NCBI GenBank assembly: GCA_903827375.1
Contig: CAIKHZ010000040.1
Location: forward strand, 470 to 64,469
Origin: Akkermansiaceae bacterium
Lineage (GTDB): Bacteria > Verrucomicrobiota > Verrucomicrobiia > Verrucomicrobiales > Akkermansiaceae
Direction of reading: 5' to 3'
DNA: 64,000 nucleotides
Below are positions 38,898 through 49,249 of this stretch, piece after piece; position 1 is the stretch's first letter, and every line of letters starts with the position of its first letter. The translations under genes and the position numbers were made by a program. The notes under the pieces were generated by a model. It saw only the letters and a list, made by a program, of their open reading frames with translations. It ran no database searches and was not told where the DNA came from.

Positions 38898-39227
38898 ATG
38901 GCAACCAAGCTCAAACCGATTAAAGAGAAACTGACCAAGACCCAAATTCTGGACCAAATCGCCGACAGCACGGGACTCGTTCGCAAACAAGTTGCGGCGG
39001 TGCTCGAGAGTCTGACCGAGGTGATCGAAGCCCACGTCAAGAAAAATGCCGTTGGTGAATTTGTGCTACCAGGCCTGCTGAAGATCAGTACCGTGCGCAA
39101 ACCGGCGGTCAAGGCGCGCAAGGGGATCAATCCCTTCACCAAGGAAGAAGTGACGTTCAAGGCCAAGGCCGCCTCAACCGCAGTGAAAGTGCGGCCCCTG
39201 AAAAAGCTTAAGGACATGGCGATCTAA
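38898..39227 (+). CDS. HU/IHF family DNA-binding protein
   Basis: LTKTQIL..IA..TGL.RKQV, GEFVLPGLLKI, ARKGINPFTKEE and KVRPLKKLKD. Confidence 0.9.
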   Translation: MATKLKPIKEKLTKTQILDQIADSTGLVRKQVAAVLESLTEVIEAHVKKNAVGEFVLPGLLKISTVRKPAVKARKGINPFTKEEVTFKAKAASTAVKVRPLKKLKDMAI

Positions 39228-39249
39228 GCGAACGCCAAGTTATCGCTAT

Positions 39250-39297
39250 TCAAACGAACAAGCCCTTCCGGAGAACCGGAAGGGCTTGTTCGTTTGA
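39250..39297. terminator. Perfect 22-bp inverted repeat; bidirectional terminator between convergent genes
   Basis: TCAAACGAACAAGCCCTTCCGG-AGAA-CCGGAAGGGCTTGTTCGTTTGA. Confidence 0.8.
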
Positions 39298-39435
39298 GTG
39301 GAGAGCTATGGGATCAAGTCCCTTGGCTTGAGAACCTACAGGGAACACTCCAGAAGCGGCTTCAGCAAGCACCCCGGGGATGAGGTGCTTGCGATGCCAG
39401 CCGCTTGCTAGAACCGAGAAGATATCTCCGAACCC

Positions 39436-42400
39436 TTATCTGGCAGTTGTGGCAGCCGGCGGGGGCACGCTGCCAGAGGCGACGGCTGGTTGTCCCTCAG
39501 CGGACATCACAACGCGGAAGCCGACGTTGTACACCGCCTGCCATGGCCGGTAGGACAAACGCGTGGCGGAGCCGGCGTGCAGCGGACGATCGAACCACGA
39601 GCCACCCCGAACGGTTTTCATGGCGTCGGATTTGGCATCGTTGCGGCCATCGGTATCCACGTACGGATACGGCCTGTACGAGGTGAGCGTCCACTCGGCG
39701 GCGTTGCCATGCATGTCCTTGAGGCCAAAGGCATTTGGCTGATAGCGGCCGACGTCGGCGGTCACTCCGCAGCCGTCGTTGAAGCGGCGGTCTCTGGGGT
39801 GCCACGGGGGAGCATCACCGCGGTCCAATTGGCTGAGCGAGGCATCGGCCAGGTTGGCGAACTTGGAGAAATCCGTGTCGCGATTGCCATAAGAATACGG
39901 CGTCTCGGTACCAGCGCGGCAGGCCCATTCCCATTGCGATTCCGTGGGCAGGGTGAATTTCTTGCCGGTCTTTTGTGAGAGCCACTTGCAGAATTCCATA
40001 GCTTCGTTCCAGGTGACGCGCACCACTGGTTGGTTAGGGTTATTGATAGAGATGCCACGTTCACCCTGATCCTTGCCAGTCATGCTGATCACACCGCTGT
40101 CATGCTTGGTATCGAAAGCGGCGTATTGGGCATTGGTTATCTCAGTGGCACCCAGATAGAACGGCTTGTCGATCTTCACTTTGGCAACCGGGACTTCATC
40201 AGCCTCACCGGCGGCGTTACCCATGACAAATTCACCCGCTGGAATCAAGGCCAGATCCAGCACCTTGGCGTCTGCCAGTTCGATCTTGAGGGTTGGTGGC
40301 AGCTTGGTGGCAGCTTGGCGTTTGGCGGCCTCGGCTGTATCAAACGGCCAGCCGGCGATGCGGATGTCTTGCTGCTGGCGGGGTGGCAACGGCGCCGGAG
40401 CAATGAACTTGATAGGCTCCTTGTTGGCCGGTTCCGGAATGGCTTCCGGATCACCGCAGCGGTTGGCATATTTCGCGAGCATGTCCATGCGCCGTTGCAT
40501 CACCGGCCGGGCACCATTGACGTGTTCGGTCCAAGTGCCGTGGTCGGGCACGTTGAGGTCGATCCAAGTGATGAGGCGATCCCAAGCCTCGGCGTCGAGC
40601 TTCACGTTGTAGTGGCCGCGTTTGAGCATTTGCATCAGTTCGCTGGTATCGACGTGATACTCCAGGGGCTTTTGCAGATGATAGTCACTTTCCGGACCCG
40701 GACGGCGCACAAACGGATGCAACGCAATGTAAGATTTAGTGAAGTTGCGCTCGCCGTTGTCTTTCTTGGCGGTGAAGTCAGCCACTGCAAGGCCGTTGAC
40801 CGGTTGGGCACCTTCCTTGTGGCAACCCACACAGTATTTGTCTAACACCGGTTGCACTTCACGTTTGAAATCGAAGCCGCGAGCCGGGCCATACCACGGG
40901 GTGATGGGAGAGGCCGGCCGCTGGCTGGCAAGGGTGGGCTTGCTCGGAGGGATCGCGTTCTGGGTGTCGTGGCAACCAATGCATGAGAAACTCTCACCAG
41001 GCATCGCCGTGTACCAACTGCGCATCAACTGGATCGCCTTGCCTTCCGCGTCTAACGGTTGAACCGCAATCGGCGTGTTGGCCGGCACCTTGAAGCTGGC
41101 CGAGCCGTCGGCCTCCACCGGCACGGTGCCGAGGATCCGATGGACGTCCCACGGGCCGTCGATGCCCACATTGATATGGCCGCCCATGCCCTGATAGGCA
41201 AAGTGGGGTTCATAGAGGCGCATTTTCTTGACGGTGCCGCGCGGCACGTCCTTGAGCCCTGGTCCCTGATAGATGTCTGCCAGATAGACAGTGGCATCGG
41301 TTTTGGTAAGATCGACGCGGTCGGGAATGACCGGTGGGCGGGTGGACTTGCGCAGAGGGATGGGTTCAAACATGACAAAGCCGTCCTGTTCCTTGATGAG
41401 GGTCATGTTGTCGAACACATCCACGAGATAGACGCCCCATTTGGCACCTTGAGTGAGTTGGCTGGAGACCAGGAAGTACTTGTCGCTGAGCGGATAGGGA
41501 TGCAGGAACTTTGGCCACGAGCCATCGCAGAGGCCGTCAGCCACGATGGGTTTGACTTCCTGGCCGGCACCGGGGATGCGTTGCACCACACCATCGGCCT
41601 CAAAGCGGCCCTTGGCGGGGTCGAACAAAATCAATTCGCCCATGCGAGGCACGCCGTGGTGGCCGGAGATGACGGAGATGAGTTTGGTTGGGTGGTTAGG
41701 CACGGGTTTGGCATAGAAGAACGAGTTAGGCCAATAGGAATTACTACCGTAGTAGGACATCTGGCCGGAGCCGTCCGGGTTCATGCGGAAGAGGATGCGG
41801 GTGAAGTAATGAGGGGTGTCAGAGTATTCCCAGCGGGTGTAGAGGACGGTGCCATCATTGAGCACGGTCGGGCACCAATCCTGGTCCTGATCGAAGCACA
41901 ACTGGCGGATGCCTGTGCCATCGGCATTCATTTTGCAGATATTGGCCACTGGGTCGCCGCCGCCCACACAGGGCACACCCTGGAAGCCGCGGGTGGAGGT
42001 GAAGAGGATTTGGCCGCTGGGCAGATAGCAAGGTTCGAAGTTGTCCACATCGGGTTCATCGCCCGGGGTCACCTGGCGAAGTCCGCTGCCATCGGCCTTG
42101 ATTTCCCAGACCTGCCAGCGGTCATTTTTGCCGGGCATCGAGAACAGCAGCTTGTCGCCGCCGAAATCCAGTTTCATGTCGCCCACAAAGCCATGGTTTT
42201 CGGGCTTCAGGAGGGTGGTGAGTGTGCCCTGCGGGCCGATTGGGGAGAGCACGTCGATTTCGTTATCGCACTGTTTGCCGATGGAGGCGTTGGATTGCCA
42301 GTTTTGCGGGAGTTCGAGGTTGTTAGCGCTGCGTTTGACCAGCAGCATTTTATCGAAATCTATCACAGGGTTGGCGAGCAATGCATCGCGCTGGAAGGTG

Positions 42401-43158
42401 GCAAACGTGTTAGCCAGTTCTTGGATGCGTTGTTTGGCCCCCTGATCACCGCCGGCCAGGGCGGTTTCCGCGTCCTTGATGGATTTTTCCAACTCGGCGA
42501 GGCGGGCTAGCAGGTCCTTACCCTTGGGGAATTTGGCACCATTGGTGGCGATCATATCTTCGAGCGCATCGCGGGTGGTTGGCACGCCGCGCAGCGCTGG
42601 AAACTCCTTGGCGCTGAGAGGTGCAAGGCGGGTTTGGCTGGAGGCAAGTGCAAAGTAGAACCCATGACTTCCGCTTTGATTGTGGATCTTGAGCAGCAAC
42701 TTGTTTTCGCCGGCTTGGAGGTCGAGGATAACGGTGGCGCTATCCGGCGAGACGCCGCGAGCGACGTCTTGGGAGAGGAGTTTTTTGGCGTTGAGCCAGA
42801 CTTCCAGTCCATCATCGCTGCCGAGACTCACGGATGCTTGGGCCGGTTTCTCAACGGTGAGCGTCCGGAACAGATAGGTCGAGACTCGCCCGTCGGCGGG
42901 CAATTCCTGAGCCTTGCCGTCGCTCCATTCAGGGTGCGCCGTCCACAGGGACTTGCCGTCGGCAGCTTTGGCTGCTAGGTCAATCCCCTTTTCCGGGAAG
43001 AACACATCACCAAATGCCTGCGCCTTCAAGGGGCCGGTTGTGTGCCACGGACCGAGCTTCACCTGTGACGTTGCCGCCAACAAGTTGCCGCTGGCCGCCG
43101 CAGTTCCTATCAAAGCCAGCACAGCGGCCTTGCCAATCATCGATTTCAAGTTTTTCAT
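39436..43158 (-). CDS. Large exported protein: PA14-like domain + beta-propeller + HzsA-middle-like domain (two CxxCH) + FGE-sulfatase (SUMF1) domain
   Basis: Signal peptide. LGSDDGLEVWLN..GENKLLLKI; NFEPCYLPSGQILFTSTR; GSASFKVPANTPIAVQPLDAEG..PGESFSCIGCH; YCVGCH; IPAGEFVMG, LPTESQWEWACRAG, PNAFGLKDMHGNAAEW and RGGSW. Confidence 0.8.
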   Translation of the reverse strand: MKNLKSMIGKAAVLALIGTAAASGNLLAATSQVKLGPWHTTGPLKAQAFGDVFFPEKGIDLAAKAADGKSLWTAHPEWSDGKAQELPADGRVSTYLFRTLTVEKPAQASVSLGSDDGLEVWLNAKKLLSQDVARGVSPDSATVILDLQAGENKLLLKIHNQSGSHGFYFALASSQTRLAPLSAKEFPALRGVPTTRDALEDMIATNGAKFPKGKDLLARLAELEKSIKDAETALAGGDQGAKQRIQELANTFATFQRDALLANPVIDFDKMLLVKRSANNLELPQNWQSNASIGKQCDNEIDVLSPIGPQGTLTTLLKPENHGFVGDMKLDFGGDKLLFSMPGKNDRWQVWEIKADGSGLRQVTPGDEPDVDNFEPCYLPSGQILFTSTRGFQGVPCVGGGDPVANICKMNADGTGIRQLCFDQDQDWCPTVLNDGTVLYTRWEYSDTPHYFTRILFRMNPDGSGQMSYYGSNSYWPNSFFYAKPVPNHPTKLISVISGHHGVPRMGELILFDPAKGRFEADGVVQRIPGAGQEVKPIVADGLCDGSWPKFLHPYPLSDKYFLVSSQLTQGAKWGVYLVDVFDNMTLIKEQDGFVMFEPIPLRKSTRPPVIPDRVDLTKTDATVYLADIYQGPGLKDVPRGTVKKMRLYEPHFAYQGMGGHINVGIDGPWDVHRILGTVPVEADGSASFKVPANTPIAVQPLDAEGKAIQLMRSWYTAMPGESFSCIGCHDTQNAIPPSKPTLASQRPASPITPWYGPARGFDFKREVQPVLDKYCVGCHKEGAQPVNGLAVADFTAKKDNGERNFTKSYIALHPFVRRPGPESDYHLQKPLEYHVDTSELMQMLKRGHYNVKLDAEAWDRLITWIDLNVPDHGTWTEHVNGARPVMQRRMDMLAKYANRCGDPEAIPEPANKEPIKFIAPAPLPPRQQQDIRIAGWPFDTAEAAKRQAATKLPPTLKIELADAKVLDLALIPAGEFVMGNAAGEADEVPVAKVKIDKPFYLGATEITNAQYAAFDTKHDSGVISMTGKDQGERGISINNPNQPVVRVTWNEAMEFCKWLSQKTGKKFTLPTESQWEWACRAGTETPYSYGNRDTDFSKFANLADASLSQLDRGDAPPWHPRDRRFNDGCGVTADVGRYQPNAFGLKDMHGNAAEWTLTSYRPYPYVDTDGRNDAKSDAMKTVRGGSWFDRPLHAGSATRLSYRPWQAVYNVGFRVVMSAEGQPAVASGSVPPPAATTAR

Positions 43159-43261
43159 AAGTAAATCTCTAGCAAACACATTCCATCTGGGAAGGAAATA
43201 CTTCCGAAGCGATGCCCCGGAAGTTTCCCATAAAATTCAGCAACAATGCTGGATCAGCGTC

Positions 43262-44263
43262 TCACCTAACCGTCAGAGCCGGTGTTTGGCAGGGAGCATT
43301 GTAGTATTCCAGCAGTTCGTCATCCATTTTGGCGGCAAACATTTGGAACCCGGCCATTTCCTGCACGGTGAGCCATTCGCCGCAATGAGATGCGGCGATG
43401 CTGATGCCCTGGGTGTCGAGGTACTTTTTGCACCCGCGCAACACGATATACATCTCCATGAGGGTGGTGGCGCCGGCACCGTTGATGACCAAAAGAAGGC
43501 GGTCGCCTGCTTTGGCTTTAACTGCGGCAACCAGACGCGAACACATCAACTCGGCCGTCTGATCGGCACTGAGGATTTTGCTAGGACCGGTGCCGGCTTC
43601 GCCGTGCTGGCCCATGCCGACTTCCATTTCATCTTCGGCGAGTTCGAAGATGGTCTGGCCGCTGGCTGGATGGGTGGCGGTGCGCATGGCAACTGCCAGA
43701 GTGGCCATGTTATCATTGAAGCGGCTGGCGATGGCATACACCTCGTCGAGGCTTTTGCCGGCTTCCGCCGCAGCTCCTGCAACCTTGTAAAGCGGGCAGC
43801 AACCGACCAAACCACGCTTGTCTTCGGCTGGAGCATCGGCTCCCGGCGCAATGTCCTCGTGAGTCACGATTTTCCGATAGAGGATCCCTTCTTGGTCAGC
43901 CATGTCGGCGGCCATGTCGGCGCTCATGACGTCCCCGGCGTGATTGAGAACGACGAAGAGGATGCCAGCATCGCGCTTGGCGAGGCGCAGCGCTTCCAAT
44001 ACCTTGGGCGGTCCCGGTGCGGCGAAGATGTCGCCGACGACGCTGAAATCCAGCGCGCCTTCCCCTACAAAGCCGCTGAGTGCGGGCTCATGGCCAGCGC
44101 CACCGAGGGTAACGATGGCGACCTTGCTGGCCGGCTTGGGCTTAGTGCGACAGACGATTTTGTCGGACTTGACGGTGACGATATCGCCGTGAGCGATGGC
44201 GAAGCCCTCAAGCAGCTCTTTGGTGAGGTCCTTGGGGTCGTTGATAAATTTTTTCATGGCCAT
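43262..44263 (-). CDS. dhaK: Dihydroxyacetone-kinase-family K subunit
   Basis: MKKFINDP, GGAGHEPA, GDIFAAP, NHAGDVM and EVGMGQHGEAG. Confidence 0.9.
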   Translation of the reverse strand: MAMKKFINDPKDLTKELLEGFAIAHGDIVTVKSDKIVCRTKPKPASKVAIVTLGGAGHEPALSGFVGEGALDFSVVGDIFAAPGPPKVLEALRLAKRDAGILFVVLNHAGDVMSADMAADMADQEGILYRKIVTHEDIAPGADAPAEDKRGLVGCCPLYKVAGAAAEAGKSLDEVYAIASRFNDNMATLAVAMRTATHPASGQTIFELAEDEMEVGMGQHGEAGTGPSKILSADQTAELMCSRLVAAVKAKAGDRLLLVINGAGATTLMEMYIVLRGCKKYLDTQGISIAASHCGEWLTVQEMAGFQMFAAKMDDELLEYYNAPCQTPALTVR

Positions 44264-44287
44264 AATGGGAATTGCAGTGGGGGTTGC

Positions 44288-44608
44288 TTACTTGGCGAAC
44301 TCAAGGAATTCAACCGGTGCGCCATCATCGAGGATGAATGCGCAGCGGATGCCTGGTAGCGGCTCGAAGGGTGCCCAGATGACCTCGTGGCCGGCGATGG
44401 CCTCTTCGAGGTTGTCCACGCTGTAGGCAACGTGGGCGGTGGTCTTGAGCAACTCTGGGAACGGGCAACCGGGCTCGGCACGCGTCCACTCGATGCGATG
44501 CGGGCTTTGGGTCGCATCTGTGATGTAAAGTTGGATGCTTTCCAAATAGATCTCGTTAGGCCGGGGCTCGGTCGTGGGGATGCCGATGTGATGGAATTCC
44601 TTTTTCAT
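44288..44608 (-). CDS. Small VOC/glyoxalase-like protein
   Basis: FHHIGIP, HVAYSVDNLEEAI and G.PVEFLE pattern of the VOC fold. Confidence 0.6.
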   Translation of the reverse strand: MKKEFHHIGIPTTEPRPNEIYLESIQLYITDATQSPHRIEWTRAEPGCPFPELLKTTAHVAYSVDNLEEAIAGHEVIWAPFEPLPGIRCAFILDDGAPVEFLEFAK

Positions 44609-44631
44609 GCGGGTCGCGGTGGGAGGATCGA

Positions 44632-45333
44632 TTACAGCTTCACATCGGGATTGGTGAAGACCAAGCCGGCACCGTCATGGAAGCTGGCGTATTCGGCGAC
44701 GATGGCACCGGAAGGGCCACCCATCATGAAGTGTTTGGCGGTGAGGCGATTGAGCGCGAGGATGTCGCCGGCTTTCACCTCGGTGCATTTTTTCACGGTG
44801 ATGAACTTCTCCTGGCTCTTGGGCAGGACCACGCCAGCAGGGATATCACCGCCGGTCTCGCCGAAGCAATAAATGCTGCCGTTGCGCGGATGCCAGCTTT
44901 CCATTTTGGCTTTGCCCTTGTCCGTCTCGGTGTGGCCGTGCTCGACGATCATCTGGCCCGGCAGGAGGAATATCTCGTGGGCGAAGTAATTGGCTTCCTG
45001 GGAATTGACCCAGAACACGCCCCCCATGCCGACGTTGACAAAATCGCCGAGACCGAAATCCGTGTACCAAAATGGGGAGGCCCATTTTTTCTCATTTTCG
45101 AGGTGAATGTCGTAGCCGTGGGCTGCCATCATATCGAGGTAGGCCTTTTTGGCGACTTCCGGTTGAAACTTGCCGTCCACGTAGAAGTCGGCGTTTTTAT
45201 ATTTCGGGAGGGTGACTTTCTTGGGATTCATGGTGGTGGGGATATCCTTAGCTAAGCTCAGGGCACTGCCCAGAGCGGCGGTGCCTGCGGCGGCGGCTAG
45301 CAGTTGCAGGTGGTTGCGACGGGTCATATTCAT
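44632..45333 (-). CDS. D-lyxose/D-mannose isomerase-family cupin with Tat signal
   Basis: MTRRNHLQLLAAAAG..ALSLA Tat-like leader; TDFGLGDF, HEIFLLPGQMIVEHGH..KMESW and HFM cupin ligands. Confidence 0.7.
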   Translation of the reverse strand: MNMTRRNHLQLLAAAAGTAALGSALSLAKDIPTTMNPKKVTLPKYKNADFYVDGKFQPEVAKKAYLDMMAAHGYDIHLENEKKWASPFWYTDFGLGDFVNVGMGGVFWVNSQEANYFAHEIFLLPGQMIVEHGHTETDKGKAKMESWHPRNGSIYCFGETGGDIPAGVVLPKSQEKFITVKKCTEVKAGDILALNRLTAKHFMMGGPSGAIVAEYASFHDGAGLVFTNPDVKL

Positions 45334-45494
45334 GTTGATTTGTTGGTTTGTGGTCATGTGTGACGGGGCTAGCGCTCACACCAGCCCCTCAGATAGCCAA
45401 ACCACACGGCCACCTTTCGGGGCCAGATTAATCAGACCGAAGCCCAACGCAATATAAAAAATTTGCATTTTGGCCGATGCGTGCCAGCAGCGGC

Positions 45495-46373
45495 CTAATG
45501 TTGGTGTTTGAGGGTGTTGTAGAGGTCGAATGCGTCCTTGGGAGTGACCTTGTCGTGGACGACGGCGCGCACGGCCTGGATCATGGCGATCGGGTGTTCG
45601 GACTGGAACACGTTGCGGCCCATATCGACCCCCGCAGCTCCCTGTTGGATCGCCTGATAGGCAAACTCGAGGGCTTCGTCTTCGGGCAATTTTTTTCCGC
45701 CGGCGATGACGATTGGCACCGGGCAGGCGGCCACCACTTGCTCGAAGCCAGTTTCGCAATAGTAGGTTTTCACGAAGGTTGCGCCGTTTTCCGCGCAGAT
45801 GCGGCTGGCCAGCCCGAGGTAGCGGGAATCGCGGACGAGTTCCTTGCCAACAGCGGTTACACCGAGAGTGGGGATGCTGTATTTTGCGCCCATATCGGCG
45901 GTGCGGATCAAATTTTTGATTGTGACTGCCTCGTACTTGCTGCCGATGGCAACCATGATGGCCAGCGCCGAAGCGTTGACGCGGATGGCGTCCTCAATAT
46001 CTAGCAGGCACTCGTCATTAAGATCCGTGAGCACGGTGGTGCCTGCGGAATATCGGAGCGAGACCGGCTTGTTGGATGTGGGCGGCACAATCGAACGCAG
46101 TGCACCGCGAGTGCACATGATGCAATCGGCGTACTCGATGAGCGGTGTGATGGTCAGATCCATGCGTTCCAGTCCGGACGTTGGGCCCATGATATAGCCG
46201 TGGTCGAAGGCGAGCATCACGGTGTTGCCGGATGTCGGGTTGAAGATACGGCTCAAACGATCCTTGATGCCCCAGTCGGCATGCTCCAGGCCTTTGAGGA
46301 AAAACGGATGTTGTTTGACGGGGATGCCGATGCCGTAATCGTTGGCATCCTTGGTGTTGTCTAGTTCAGCCAT
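45495..46373 (-). CDS. lsrF: LsrF-like class I aldolase/thiolase
   Basis: DWGIKDRLSRIFNPTSGNTVMLAFDHGYIMGPTSGLER, CTRGALRS, VKTYY, IAGGKK and GVDMGRNVFQ; closely resembles enterobacterial LsrF as I recall it. Confidence 0.88.
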   Translation of the reverse strand: MAELDNTKDANDYGIGIPVKQHPFFLKGLEHADWGIKDRLSRIFNPTSGNTVMLAFDHGYIMGPTSGLERMDLTITPLIEYADCIMCTRGALRSIVPPTSNKPVSLRYSAGTTVLTDLNDECLLDIEDAIRVNASALAIMVAIGSKYEAVTIKNLIRTADMGAKYSIPTLGVTAVGKELVRDSRYLGLASRICAENGATFVKTYYCETGFEQVVAACPVPIVIAGGKKLPEDEALEFAYQAIQQGAAGVDMGRNVFQSEHPIAMIQAVRAVVHDKVTPKDAFDLYNTLKHQH

Positions 46374-46403
46374 GGTGTTGGTGTGTTAGTTTAGGTGAGT
46401 GGT

Positions 46404-47033
46404 TCACAGCGCCTCGCTAAAACCCTTGAATATAAGGGAAACGGACACGGCACCGGGATCGACGTGGCCGATGACCCGTTCGCCGAGGTTGCGGGCACGG
46501 CCGAATTTGGCGCGAAATTGCTTGGTGGCCTCGGCCCCCTCAGCGGCGGCCGCGGCGGCTTGTTGGAGAGCCAGGCGGATGTCGCCAGAGGGCGCAGCGG
46601 CTAACAACGCATCGAGCGCAGGCAGGAATGCGTCCATCATGGTTTTGTCACCCACCACCGCGCGGCTCTGCTTGGCGAGTTTGAGAATACCGCCGTTGAT
46701 CATCTGCACCAGCGCTGTGCAGTCGAGCTCGGCGCTGTCTCCGGCGGCGCTGCTCATGCCCATGAACCACGAGCCAAGCAGGGGTCCGGTCGATCCTCCA
46801 TCGCAGTCCATTACATCCCAGGCGATTTTGGCGAGCAGCGGTTTGAGCTCGTTACTGGGAGCATCGGCAATGGCCTTGGAGACGGCTTCCATGCAGCGGA
46901 GGATGGTACTGCCGTGGTCGCCATCGCCCACTGCGGCGTCGAGGCGGGAGAGTTGTTCGTGGTTGGCGCGGATTTGTTCGACGGCGGCCAACAGCATCTG
47001 GCAGACTTGGTGATAGGAGATGGTTTCAGACAT
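46404..47033 (-). CDS. dhaL: Dihydroxyacetone-kinase-family L subunit
   Basis: LDAAVGDGDHG, GGSTGPL, GDKTMMDA, GRARNLGER and DPGA. Confidence 0.9.
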   Translation of the reverse strand: MSETISYHQVCQMLLAAVEQIRANHEQLSRLDAAVGDGDHGSTILRCMEAVSKAIADAPSNELKPLLAKIAWDVMDCDGGSTGPLLGSWFMGMSSAAGDSAELDCTALVQMINGGILKLAKQSRAVVGDKTMMDAFLPALDALLAAAPSGDIRLALQQAAAAAAEGAEATKQFRAKFGRARNLGERVIGHVDPGAVSVSLIFKGFSEAL

Positions 47034-47262
47034 GGCGGGATCAATCAGCTAGGTTAACAACGCAAATGGCCCAACAGATGGGTCGCGCTTGACCTAGAGT
47101 ATCTGCCCCAACCAATGCAATAGAAAAAATCGGTTTTTTATCAGTTGATGAAACCCGGCGGCAGTGGCGTGGGGGTGGGGGTGGGTGCTAACAGGCAGGA
47201 AGATTCACCGCGCTGCGAAGATTCGTGGCAAAGATACCCGTGGGTTTACAGCCAGAAGAATC

Positions 47263-47300
47263 ATAAAAAAGCCGTCTCCCGATCGAACGGGAGACGGCTT
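47263..47300 (-). terminator. Intrinsic terminator of the H1-like gene
   Basis: On the minus strand AAGCCGTCTCCCG-TTCGAT-CGGGAGACGGC followed by TTTTTT. Confidence 0.8.
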
Positions 47301-47332
47301 GTATGATCGAATTGGTTTGGTTTTTGGTATGA

Positions 47333-48028
47333 CTAGATCTTACCAATTGTCAGCTTCAACTTGGCGATTTGCTTCTCCAACTTGGCAACCTGATTGGTGA
47401 TGGCGATGACGCCCTTGGCGCTCAGACCACCGGTGGCGGGTGCCTTCACCTTGGCCGCTTTCGCTGGCGCTGCGGCTTTTGGTGCCTTGGCGGCTTTAGG
47501 AGCCTTGGGAGCTTTAGCGGCTTTGGGACCCTTGGTAGCCACGCCAGCTTTTTTGACCCAGCCACTGATGGTCAGCGGAGAAACCTTATACTTGGCGACG
47601 GCGGCACTCAAGCCACCACGGCCCCTGGCAGTGTTAACTTCCAGCACATACGCAACGACTTCCTGCTTCTGCGCATCGGTGTAGCGCTTGCCTTGGGGAG
47701 CGTCTTGCTTGACTGCTGCCTTGGCTGCTGCCTTGGCTGCCTTGGCTGCCTTGGCGACCTTGGAAACTTTCACGATCTTCACGATCTTGGGTGCCTTGGC
47801 AGGAGCAGGAGCGGCGGCCTTAGCGGCTTTGGCTGCCTTGGGTTCCGCACCGGCCTTGAGCCAACCTGCGACCGTAAGCACCGAGATGCCATATTTTCTT
47901 GCGGCTTCGGCTTGACCGCCGCGGCCTTTGTCAGCATTCCACTTGTTAGCGAAATTGATGACTTCTTGTTTCTGGGCGTCAGTATATCGTATGCCCTTGG
48001 TAGTAGTTTTCTTTGGAATTGCACTCAT
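47333..48028 (-). CDS. Lys/Ala-rich histone-H1-like protein with two HTH repeats and a C-terminal coiled coil
   Basis: Two copies of RYTDAQKQEV..RGG..AA..KY..S.LT..GW.K separated and followed by (P)KAAKA repeats; ends QVAKLEKQIAKLKL. Confidence 0.75.
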   Translation of the reverse strand: MSAIPKKTTTKGIRYTDAQKQEVINFANKWNADKGRGGQAEAARKYGISVLTVAGWLKAGAEPKAAKAAKAAAPAPAKAPKIVKIVKVSKVAKAAKAAKAAAKAAVKQDAPQGKRYTDAQKQEVVAYVLEVNTARGRGGLSAAVAKYKVSPLTISGWVKKAGVATKGPKAAKAPKAPKAAKAPKAAAPAKAAKVKAPATGGLSAKGVIAITNQVAKLEKQIAKLKLTIGKI

Positions 48029-48124
48029 GTCGCGGGGAACATATCAGGGCAATTAAGTTTCACAAGAGAAAAGTTACACTTTTTCAAAGTAAATGATAAC
48101 GAGATAAATTCACGAGATAACATG

Positions 48125-49249
48125 CTAATAGCCATTGAGCATGGCAAGCAGAGTTTGTGAATCAGTCATGTTATCGATCCAATGCTTAGCCCCCTGTTTG
48201 ACGTTGGGACGAGTGATAACGCCGCCGAAGCCGATGAACACATCGACGTCGGGCTGGGTTTCCAAATCAGACATACCATCACCGATCATGGCCACGCGCT
48301 GGGGGAAGATGGCTTGGCACCACTCTCGGATGATGAGGTTTTTACCGCCATTGCGGGTGGTAGGATAGCTTTGTGCATAGCCGGCATAGTTGCCAGACGC
48401 ATCGAATTCGAGTGGCACAGCTTCCACATGATCGATGCCAAGATATCGGGCCAATGGAGCGATGAGAGGAGCGAAGCCGCCGGAGAGAATCACAGGCAGC
48501 CAGTCATTCGCCTTGAGTTGCTGGATCAACTCGGGAGCTCCGGGTGTGAGTGTTGCCACATAGTGCGCAGCCACCAGTTCGCACGCAGCCCGGTCCGGAC
48601 GGATGATATCCATGCGGCGGGCAAACACCTCATCGAGGGGCACTTCGCCATTCATGGCGGCATGTGTGAGGGCCACAACTTCGGCATAGACATCGGCACC
48701 CCGCACTCGCGCCAATTCATCAATCCCCTCAATCGCGGAGAGGGTTGAATCGCAATCCAGGAAGATGAGTTTACCTCGGCGTTGGAGCGGTGGATGAATA
48801 TAAACCTCCGCGCCCGGAGGCACCAACTCAAACAACTCAAGCATATCCTCATTACGCAATCGGATGCAACCATGGCTCGCCGGGTGCCCGATGAGATCCT
48901 CGCGATTGGTGCCATGAATATAGATGCAGCGCTGGAGAGTGTTGGCATTTTCCGGGTCCATGCCATCCAAGCGCAGGATCCGGGTGAGTACCAAATCATC
49001 AGTTACCACATCGCAGGGTTGCCAGATGCCGCAGGCCACTCTTGAGCGAAATACCGTGCCCGTGGCTGCACCCGCGCCAAGTTTTTCCAGCACCCGGAAG
49101 CGCCCCAGCGGCGTCCGAAAGGAACCCACAGCAAAGCCCACGCCCTTGGCAGCGGTGGAGACCGGATAGCTGCGCAAGTGCTGCTTCGCCTCGAACACAT
49201 CCAGGCGTTGGTCATCGATGGAAACTTCAAGTGAGATCGACGGATTCAT
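48125..49249 (-). CDS. Fusion of a YkuD L,D-transpeptidase domain and a SerB-like HAD-IB phosphatase
   Basis: N-terminal half: YPVSTA, TPLGRF and IYIHGT..SHGCIRL. C-terminal half: FLDCDSTL..EGIDELA, ILSGG, GGK and IGDGMSDL. One uninterrupted frame. Confidence 0.8.
   Translation of the reverse strand: MNPSISLEVSIDDQRLDVFEAKQHLRSYPVSTAAKGVGFAVGSFRTPLGRFRVLEKLGAGAATGTVFRSRVACGIWQPCDVVTDDLVLTRILRLDGMDPENANTLQRCIYIHGTNREDLIGHPASHGCIRLRNEDMLELFELVPPGAEVYIHPPLQRRGKLIFLDCDSTLSAIEGIDELARVRGADVYAEVVALTHAAMNGEVPLDEVFARRMDIIRPDRAACELVAAHYVATLTPGAPELIQQLKANDWLPVILSGGFAPLIAPLARYLGIDHVEAVPLEFDASGNYAGYAQSYPTTRNGGKNLIIREWCQAIFPQRVAMIGDGMSDLETQPDVDVFIGFGGVITRPNVKQGAKHWIDNMTDSQTLLAMLNGY

Follow-up and report, generated by a model that had tools for sequence, protein, structure and literature searches.

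LsrF and DhaK/DhaL encoded with an exported cupin and a haem protein: a possible two-compartment catabolic module in Verrucomicrobiota and other phyla

Six adjacent genes of a lake verrucomicrobium may well represent the verrucomicrobial form of a widespread catabolic module that spans two cellular compartments. They lie in a 64,000-nucleotide stretch of DNA, hereafter called the window, from the 96%-complete genome of an Akkermansiaceae bacterium (assembly GCA_903827375.1, contig CAIKHZ010000040.1, positions 470 to 64,469 of the forward strand). Five of the genes form a run of co-oriented open reading frames on the minus strand (43262-47033), in the order DhaL-LsrF-cupin-VOC-DhaK and with intergenic gaps, from 5' to 3', of 30, 137, 23 and 24 nt; after a further 82 nt, dhaK is followed by a co-oriented gene for a haem protein. 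An initial annotation, made from the window alone, had assigned these identities to the five co-oriented genes, and all five gene calls proved correct, including their coordinates:

46404..47033, minus strand: dhaL, first gene of the operon, 209 amino acids (Dak2, TIGR02365)
45495..46373, minus strand: LsrF-family enzyme with a class I aldolase fold, 292 amino acids (NF006081, identity to E. coli LsrF)
44632..45357, minus strand: exported cupin with a D-lyxose isomerase fold, 241 amino acids (phmmer, AF2/Foldseek)
44288..44608, minus strand: minimal VOC protein with a glyoxalase/MMCE fold, 106 amino acids (AF2/Foldseek)
43262..44263, minus strand: dhaK, substrate-binding subunit of the kinase, 333 amino acids (Dak1)
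39436..43179, minus strand: exported multidomain haem protein, 1247 amino acids (Pfam HZS_alpha and FGE-sulfatase)

The arrangement of these genes is not a product of chance. Conservation of the cluster, on which the initial annotation had made its proposal depend, is strong, extending over about 80 loci from several phyla. Among the LsrF-seeded loci, which are the best 80 of more than 593 matches to an alignment of LsrF, DhaK, DhaL and LsrF were encoded within 4.5 kb and on one strand in 58 cases. Taken singly, DhaL was found in 62/80 of these loci, DhaK in 59/80, the VOC protein in 35/80, the cupin in 31/80 and a giant protein resembling HZS-alpha and formylglycine-generating enzyme (FGE) in 27/80. 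A cupin-seeded set comprised 27 loci from Verrucomicrobiota, plus Tepidisphaeraceae and Kiritimatiellia, and neighbour families were clustered over 107 loci. Rarer neighbours included an IclR regulator, a Mal-s-1/ASST-like propeller protein, a 635-residue protein with a propeller and two haem sites, an FkbO/RidA-like protein and CcsBA. The carriers belong to the Verrucomicrobiota, Planctomycetota, Kiritimatiellota, Lentisphaerota, Bacteroidota, Acidobacteriota (a 10-gene operon in Bryobacteraceae) and Spirochaetota. They include the cultured Parabacteroides distasonis, Millionella massiliensis, Aureibacter tunicatorum and Lentisphaerae WC36 and, in the human gut, P. distasonis and Rikenellaceae. 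The commonest order, cupin-VOC-DhaK-DhaL-LsrF, was seen at 32 loci. The separation of DhaL from DhaK that had drawn attention to the window is thus real, but it is only a local rearrangement, because the order DhaL-LsrF-cupin-VOC-DhaK is confined to 6 loci, all of the organism's own Akkermansiaceae-type clade. The existence of several gene orders speaks for selection on the set of genes rather than inheritance of one arrangement. Within the phylum, LsrF was detected above the cut-off in 35 of 301 sampled genomes, with a patchy distribution in the window's own family. Loci with LsrF alone (Desulfobacterales, some Planctomycetaceae) showed no informative conserved neighbours save a zinc-dependent alcohol dehydrogenase (Zn-ADH) in two of them.

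On the evidence of their sequences, the DhaK and DhaL of the window are a two-subunit kinase in which DhaL serves as the nucleotide-binding subunit. DhaL matches Dak2 (4.6e-44) and exceeds the TIGR02365 cut-off (154.4 versus 138.3 bits), while DhaK matches Dak1 (2.4e-99) and falls below that of the TIGR02363 equivalog (305 versus 406). DhaK residues H58, D111 and H220 correspond to E. coli His56, Asp109 and His218 and are kept in 81-84 of 84 family members; DhaL residues D32, D37 and D39, corresponding to the Mg/ADP ligands Asp30, Asp35 and Asp37 of E. coli, are kept in 83 of 84. Kinases of the DhaK type bind short-chain carbonyl compounds covalently and phosphorylate the neighbouring hydroxymethyl group. 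An EIIA-Man/DhaM domain (PF03610) was found neither in the organism's own genome nor in any of 10 other carriers, in a search whose positive controls were matched, and tblastn with E. coli DhaM returned a single weak match in the genome, to the C-terminal part of DhaM. The lack of DhaM makes ATP the likely phosphoryl donor. An ordinary kinase of dihydroxyacetone (DHA) or glyceraldehyde, its neighbours unrelated and adjacent by chance or synteny, would agree with the canonical residues of both subunits and with the fact that this DhaKL is the only one in the genome. We nevertheless hold this explanation to be very improbable, considering that the DhaK-DhaL-LsrF adjacency of the 58 loci recurs across seven phyla and in several orders and that DhaK lies under the equivalog cut-off.

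The assignment of the second gene is equally clear at the family level. Its product scores 456 bits against NF006081 (cut-off, 297) and shows 58% identity to E. coli LsrF along its entire length; an E. coli genome used as a control in our phylum panel also matched this model but stayed under the cut-off, perhaps owing to the control strain or to the six-frame first-look search. Comparison with the residues given in the paper on the structure of E. coli LsrF (2009; PMC2728841) showed that K203, D57, H58, D251, G226, G227, G253 and R254 are kept in the window protein and in 101 of 101 members of its clade. Among these, Lys203 forms the Schiff base, Asp57 acts as the general base and Arg254, Gly226, Gly227 and Gly253 make up the phosphate site, whereas Asp251 is an LsrF-specific replacement for the catalytic Glu/Tyr of true aldolases (PMC2728841). 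The window protein is therefore predicted to be a CoA-dependent, thiolase-type C-C cleavage enzyme that yields dihydroxyacetone phosphate (DHAP), and thiolase rather than aldolase chemistry would be expected of it. A quick maximum-likelihood search placed 101 DhaKL-linked sequences of the PVC/Bacteroidota type in one clade (SH-aLRT, 96) and E. coli LsrF with two alpha-proteobacterial proteins in another (98). The two are drawn as separate branches, but the fork that joins them, which also includes the sequence of a Lacticaseibacillus lsr operon, is unsupported.

To our knowledge, LsrF has been described only as the enzyme that completes the destruction of autoinducer-2 (AI-2) in enteric bacteria and is the sole characterised member of its family. 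It uses Schiff-base chemistry to split a 2,4-diketo-3-hydroxy phosphate and passes the acyl group on to CoA. The genome encodes a single LsrF. A full lsr operon elsewhere in the genome, which would have explained its presence, was not found: tblastn with the E. coli Lsr proteins detected no LsrG, LsrB or LsrR in the 96%-complete genome, and with LsrK only generic FGGY kinases of about 25% identity. The absence of dhaM, lsrK, lsrG and an lsr transporter, previously noted for the window, thus extends for dhaM, lsrK, lsrG and lsrB to the genome as a whole. Moreover, none of the 80 LsrF-seeded loci contained lsrK, lsrG, lsrACDB or lsrR.

These data bear on an Lsr-independent degradation of AI-2, which the initial annotation had offered as one of two possibilities. 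DhaKL would hold exogenous 4,5-dihydroxypentane-2,3-dione (DPD) by the C3 carbonyl, in the manner of glyceraldehyde, and phosphorylate it, the VOC protein would turn the product into phosphorylated 3-hydroxypentane-2,4-dione (P-HPD) and LsrF would release DHAP and acetyl-CoA, leaving the exported proteins as accessory or unrelated. One part of this proposal is supported, as the replacement of LsrK and LsrG by DhaKL and the VOC protein fits the cytoplasmic half best, with the LsrF residues kept and DhaM lacking. The family also has in LsrF its only characterised member, all known catalytic residues of which are retained at 58% identity, and a trio of kinase, small isomerase and LsrF mirrors LsrK, LsrG and LsrF. 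LuxS is absent from the window genome and from 9 of 10 other carriers, which would suit organisms that scavenge or quench a signal made by others, and many carriers live in dense gut communities. Yet neither an LsrB-type protein nor any other protein for the binding or transport of AI-2 was found in the genome, the module is common in PVC bacteria of oligotrophic lakes and soil, LsrF homologues of similar identity occur in non-lsr contexts, and AI-2 uptake has no role for exported haem, propeller and cupin proteins or for an IclR regulator. Such a dedicated route is therefore unlikely in our view, though AI-2 itself may be a substrate of the module.

The cupin and the VOC protein are silent in Pfam and NCBIfam, so that structure prediction was needed for their identification. 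For the cupin, no Pfam match was obtained even at E <= 10, PF07385 included, and none in NCBIfam; phmmer retrieved the D-lyxose isomerases 2y0o (1e-12) and 7nzo (3e-11). Its AF2 model (pLDDT of about 97 in the mature domain) gave the D-lyxose isomerases 7nzo and 7nzp (Thermofilum) and 2y0o (B. subtilis) as best Foldseek matches (target-normalised TM, 0.84-0.87; root-mean-square deviation, 2.3 A), and the metal ligands H140, H142, E153 and H209, which make up a His-His-Glu-His site, do not vary among 35 homologues. A twin-arginine (Tat) signal peptide, TRRNHLQLLAAAAGTAALGSALSLA, takes up residues 1 to about 36, with KD as the first residues of the mature part; it displays the typical make-up of TRRNHLQLL, a hydrophobic stretch and SLA before the KD. 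Translation probably starts at M9 or M11. Tat or Sec/lipoprotein-type N-terminal signals are present in 22 of 23 cupin homologues, the exception (L010) having its upstream frame cut, whereas the translations of DhaK, DhaL, the VOC protein and LsrF do not begin with signal peptides. The export signal implies that the cupin works outside the cytoplasm, as far as its sequence can tell. This distribution of signals is at odds with the other scheme of the initial annotation, in which isomerase, DhaKL and LsrF act one after the other in a single compartment, and we have abandoned it in that form.

The VOC protein, which had no Pfam, NCBIfam or PDB sequence match, yielded an AF2 model with a pLDDT of 96.1 and with the paired beta-alpha-beta-beta-beta modules of the VOC superfamily. 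The top Foldseek matches were 2r6u, 3oa4, 3hdp (an Ni-glyoxalase I) and 6bu2 (methylmalonyl-CoA epimerase, MMCE), with query-normalised TM values of 0.65-0.73, and residues H7, E40, H59 and E100, the putative His/Glu/His/Glu metal ligands, are invariant in 20 homologues. Its gene lies directly upstream of DhaK in most loci. Metal centres of VOC proteins stabilise enediolates, as a carbonyl-shifting isomerase requires, and the modelled structure predicts a metal-dependent isomerase or epimerase of a phosphorylated intermediate.

A route in the style of fucose or rhamnose catabolism would make different use of the same proteins: the cupin would produce a 2-ketose, DhaKL would phosphorylate it at C1 and LsrF, acting as a plain class I aldolase, would release DHAP and an aldehyde, with the VOC protein handling a reactive aldehyde or 2-oxoaldehyde. 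In its fold and its metal site the cupin does agree with aldose-ketose isomerases, and LsrF has the fold and Schiff-base lysine of class I aldolases. A paralogous cluster on another contig of the same genome (C30:21571-24962) moreover joins an exported cupin, 38% identical to that of the window, to a short-chain dehydrogenase/reductase (SDR), a DeoC/LacD-type class I aldolase and a Zn-ADH. We nonetheless consider this route rather unlikely, because the isomerase is exported and the kinase cytoplasmic, because LsrF carries its specific Asp251 in place of the aldolase Glu/Tyr and because the conserved neighbours at the roughly 100 loci clustered include no aldehyde dehydrogenase or reductase; in addition, glyoxalase I chemistry needs a thiol cofactor and glyoxalase II, neither of which is present. 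The C30 cupin passes the PF07385 threshold narrowly (22 bits versus 20.8), and two proteins with HZS_alpha domains are encoded 2.5 kb from that cluster on the other strand. Exported cupins may feed cytoplasmic aldolase routes more generally in this organism.

The 1247-residue haem protein is a conserved partner of the operon. An HZS-alpha-like homologue adjoins the module in 41 of the 107 clustered loci. The protein is composed of a signal peptide, a propeller, an HZS-alpha middle domain, two CxxCH motifs (SCIGCH and YCVGCH in the translation) and a C-terminal FGE/PvdO-like domain, with Pfam matches to HZS_alpha (PF18582, 1.6e-31) and FGE-sulfatase (3.5e-45) and PDB matches to PvdO (5hha, 2.6e-21) and HZS-alpha (5c2v_A, 9e-7). 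A true formylglycine-generating enzyme can be rejected for the C-terminal part, in which both catalytic cysteines are missing (GGSWFDRPLHAGSATRLSY) and whose best PDB match is the non-FGE protein PvdO. In other phyla, the 635-residue partner with a propeller and two haem sites (fam13) is a fused homologue of HZS-beta (6.8e-30) and HZS-gamma (2.9e-23), so that the exported part resembles a complete hydrazine-synthase set in many lineages. The clusters of gut Bacteroidales (P. distasonis, L114; L053-L055; Millionella, L112) carry their own gene for cytochrome c maturation, of the ResB/CcsA-type CcsBA kind, implying functional c-type haem proteins in these anaerobes.

Collectively, the exported cupin and haem proteins suggest a periplasmic first stage, and we propose the following scheme for the two-compartment module. 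In the periplasm, the exported Mn/Fe-type cupin and the HZS-alpha-like c-type haem protein, joined in other phyla by the HZS-beta/gamma-like fusion and one more propeller protein, would act on an extracytoplasmic substrate and deliver a small alpha-hydroxy-keto or diketo sugar. In the cytoplasm, His220 of DhaK would then bind the carbonyl compound, whose terminal hydroxyl would be phosphorylated from the nucleotide held by DhaL. The VOC metalloprotein would shift or epimerise the carbonyl via an enediolate, a role that falls to LsrG in the Lsr pathway, and Lys202 of the LsrF-family enzyme would form a Schiff base at the carbonyl beside the CH2-O-P group, leading to cleavage of the C-C bond. 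The products would be DHAP and an acyl-CoA, which would be acetyl-CoA if the substrate resembled DPD or HPD and another acyl-CoA if it did not. The substrate, the order of the steps and the phosphoryl donor are what we infer from the analysis as a whole, and a link between the two compartments is assumed. The conserved link to exported haem and propeller proteins whose N-termini are of a glycan-binding type points to a substrate that is made or modified in the periplasm rather than to AI-2/DPD.

Genes of the butyrate kinase type were observed just upstream of VOC-DhaK-DhaL-LsrF in Aureibacter (L115:6068-7141) and in a metagenome-assembled genome of the Phycisphaerae (L109:3301-4398). Together with the lack of a conserved aldehyde enzyme, these flanks in two unrelated phyla weakly favour an acyl-CoA product, and there are hints that it is converted to ATP.

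It is tempting to go one step further and to view the module as the cytoplasmic end of an oxidative-thiolytic sugar pathway, a specific form of the scheme that we put forward only tentatively. The exported HZS-like haem proteins with their lectin-like ends would add a second carbonyl to a sugar, or an amino or deoxy sugar, freed from glycans, and the exported cupin would make a 2-ketose; a 2,4-diulose phosphate would result, and its division into DHAP and an acyl-CoA would fall to DhaKL, the VOC protein and LsrF. If this were true, HZS-type haem enzymes would have a carbohydrate-related role a long way from anammox, in PVC bacteria and in Bacteroidales of the human gut, and the enterobacterial Lsr pathway would share its terminal enzyme with a much more widespread module.

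Several observations weigh against the two-compartment scheme. No transporter is conserved in the cluster, and DhaKL-LsrF occurs at some loci without the cupin gene and at some without the VOC gene. With more than 40 paralogues of the HZS-alpha-like protein in this genome, the copies adjacent to the module in different phyla are no more than putative orthologues. Only the alpha-like haem protein is adjacent in the window, which contains no beta/gamma-like gene; HZS-beta/gamma-like fusion genes instead lie beside other alpha-like paralogues (C306, C229), and a Mal-s-1-like propeller gene beside the one on C200. Finally, alpha-proteobacterial 'lsrF' genes whose products are 57-59% identical to the window LsrF adjoin genes for an FGGY kinase and a GlpD-like dehydrogenase, which indicates that the LsrF family serves more than one pathway and that the substrate cannot be read from the identity to E. 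coli LsrF.

The LsrF family thus occurs in at least three gene contexts. The alpha-proteobacterial genes, located on Shinella plasmid p1 (L116) and Sagittula plasmid p3 (L117), are also accompanied by a sugar ABC transporter and an SDR or class II aldolase, and this setting, outside canonical lsr operons, appears to be a third, uncharacterised context of the family. On plasmid pMGB0747-1 of Lacticaseibacillus paracasei (L118), lsrF belongs to an lsr operon with lsrK, a regulator and an ABC transporter. Genes for a small cupin and RbsD stand beside lsrK and no lsrG is annotated, the operon being otherwise canonical save for the isomerase. As to the haem protein, paralogues were located on, for example, C128, C30, C200, C347, C229 and C306, and five or six of them are 43-52% identical to it over the full length, including the FGE-like end. 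In Tannerellaceae, the module is followed by genes for an MFS or SSF transporter and a GH130 protein.

Operation in the synthetic direction appears most improbable. DhaKL would supply DHAP, LsrF would combine it with acetyl-CoA to give P-HPD and the VOC protein would form a DPD-like compound, so that a signal or metabolite would be made independently of LuxS. While the carriers lack LuxS and reactions of the class I aldolase fold are formally reversible, thioester cleavage strongly favours degradation, neither a phosphatase nor an exporter is conserved, and loci with an IclR regulator and with exported proteins of the glycan type are typically catabolic. The pathways for sulfoquinovose, apiose and 5-deoxyribose (DHAP shunt) were excluded by reasoning, as their signature genes were not among the Pfam-scanned conserved neighbours, although no search was aimed at them; we take these genes to be those for sulfoquinovosidase and sulfolactaldehyde enzymes, for transketolase and RLP, and for MtnK/MtnA-type enzymes, respectively.

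Two further elements were located on the minus strand:

47269..47300, minus strand: strong intrinsic terminator of the upstream helix-turn-helix (HTH) gene, with a 13-bp stem (9 GC pairs) followed by TTTTTAT
43200..43224, minus strand: hairpin in the gap between dhaK and the haem-protein gene, with an 11-pair stem and a weak T tail

From its sequence, the terminator of the HTH gene is the 5' boundary of the dhaL transcription unit, and the hairpin is a possible partial terminator or processing site. An Rfam scan of positions 39000-48300 revealed no riboswitch or leader, every match lying far under the gathering score, and a promoter scan performed no better than on shuffled sequences. The upstream gene (47333-48028, minus strand) is a stand-alone gene encoding a protein of 231 amino acids with two HTH repeats and linkers rich in lysine, alanine and proline; its place beside the operon is shared by the closest relatives alone (L001, L025). 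Beyond it, at 48125-49249 on the minus strand, a YkuD L,D-transpeptidase domain is fused to a SerB-like HAD-IB phosphatase domain in a protein with no evident export signal.

Our full-text literature searches found no published description of the LsrF-DhaKL(-cupin-VOC-haem) gene combination. The LsrF family appears here in a different module that, with seven phyla, is far more widespread than the enteric destruction of AI-2. Its solution would reveal either a new route for a common but unrecognised small keto sugar or a new way in which bacteria without LuxS consume AI-2, and it would provide a first functional handle on the family of HZS-like haem proteins outside anammox bacteria. The question can be tested directly, as cultured carriers exist.

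The cupin shares the fold (TM of about 0.85) and the His-His-Glu-His metal site of B. subtilis YdaE (2y0o) and Thermofilum TsLI (7nzo), but it is only about 25% identical to known D-lyxose isomerases and carries an export signal, whereas the known enzymes are cytoplasmic. Like E. coli DhaK-DhaL-DhaM and the ATP-dependent DHA kinases and erythrulose kinases, the kinase has Dak1 and Dak2 on two subunits, and it has in common with the E. coli DHA kinase the hemiaminal-forming His, the acid/base Asp and His and the Mg-binding Asp triad. Unlike E. coli DhaKLM, it occurs without DhaM in the window genome and in the 10 other carriers, its DhaK stays under the DhaK equivalog cut-off, and it is always coupled to LsrF, for which a DHA kinase has no need. 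The 1247-residue protein shares with anammox hydrazine synthase (PDB 5C2V) a propeller, the HZS-alpha middle domain and two CxxCH motifs and differs from anammox HZS-alpha in its lectin-like N-terminus and FGE/PvdO-like C-terminus; the organisms that carry it are not anammox bacteria.

The closest parallel is the Lsr system of E. coli and Salmonella (LsrK, LsrG and LsrF, encoded by lsrACDBFG and lsrRK). Both systems follow a common logic, in which a kinase and a small isomerase precede C-C cleavage to DHAP, and the terminal enzyme of the window module is a true member of the LsrF family. However, LsrK, an FGGY kinase, gives way to a split DhaK/DhaL, the ABM fold of LsrG to the VOC fold of the small protein, and the LsrACDB transporter and LsrR are lacking, while an exported cupin and haem proteins are conserved partners that the Lsr system does not have. 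The window thus apparently presents an Lsr-type scheme of kinase, isomerase and thiolase that is built from non-orthologous parts and set in an undescribed two-compartment set of genes.

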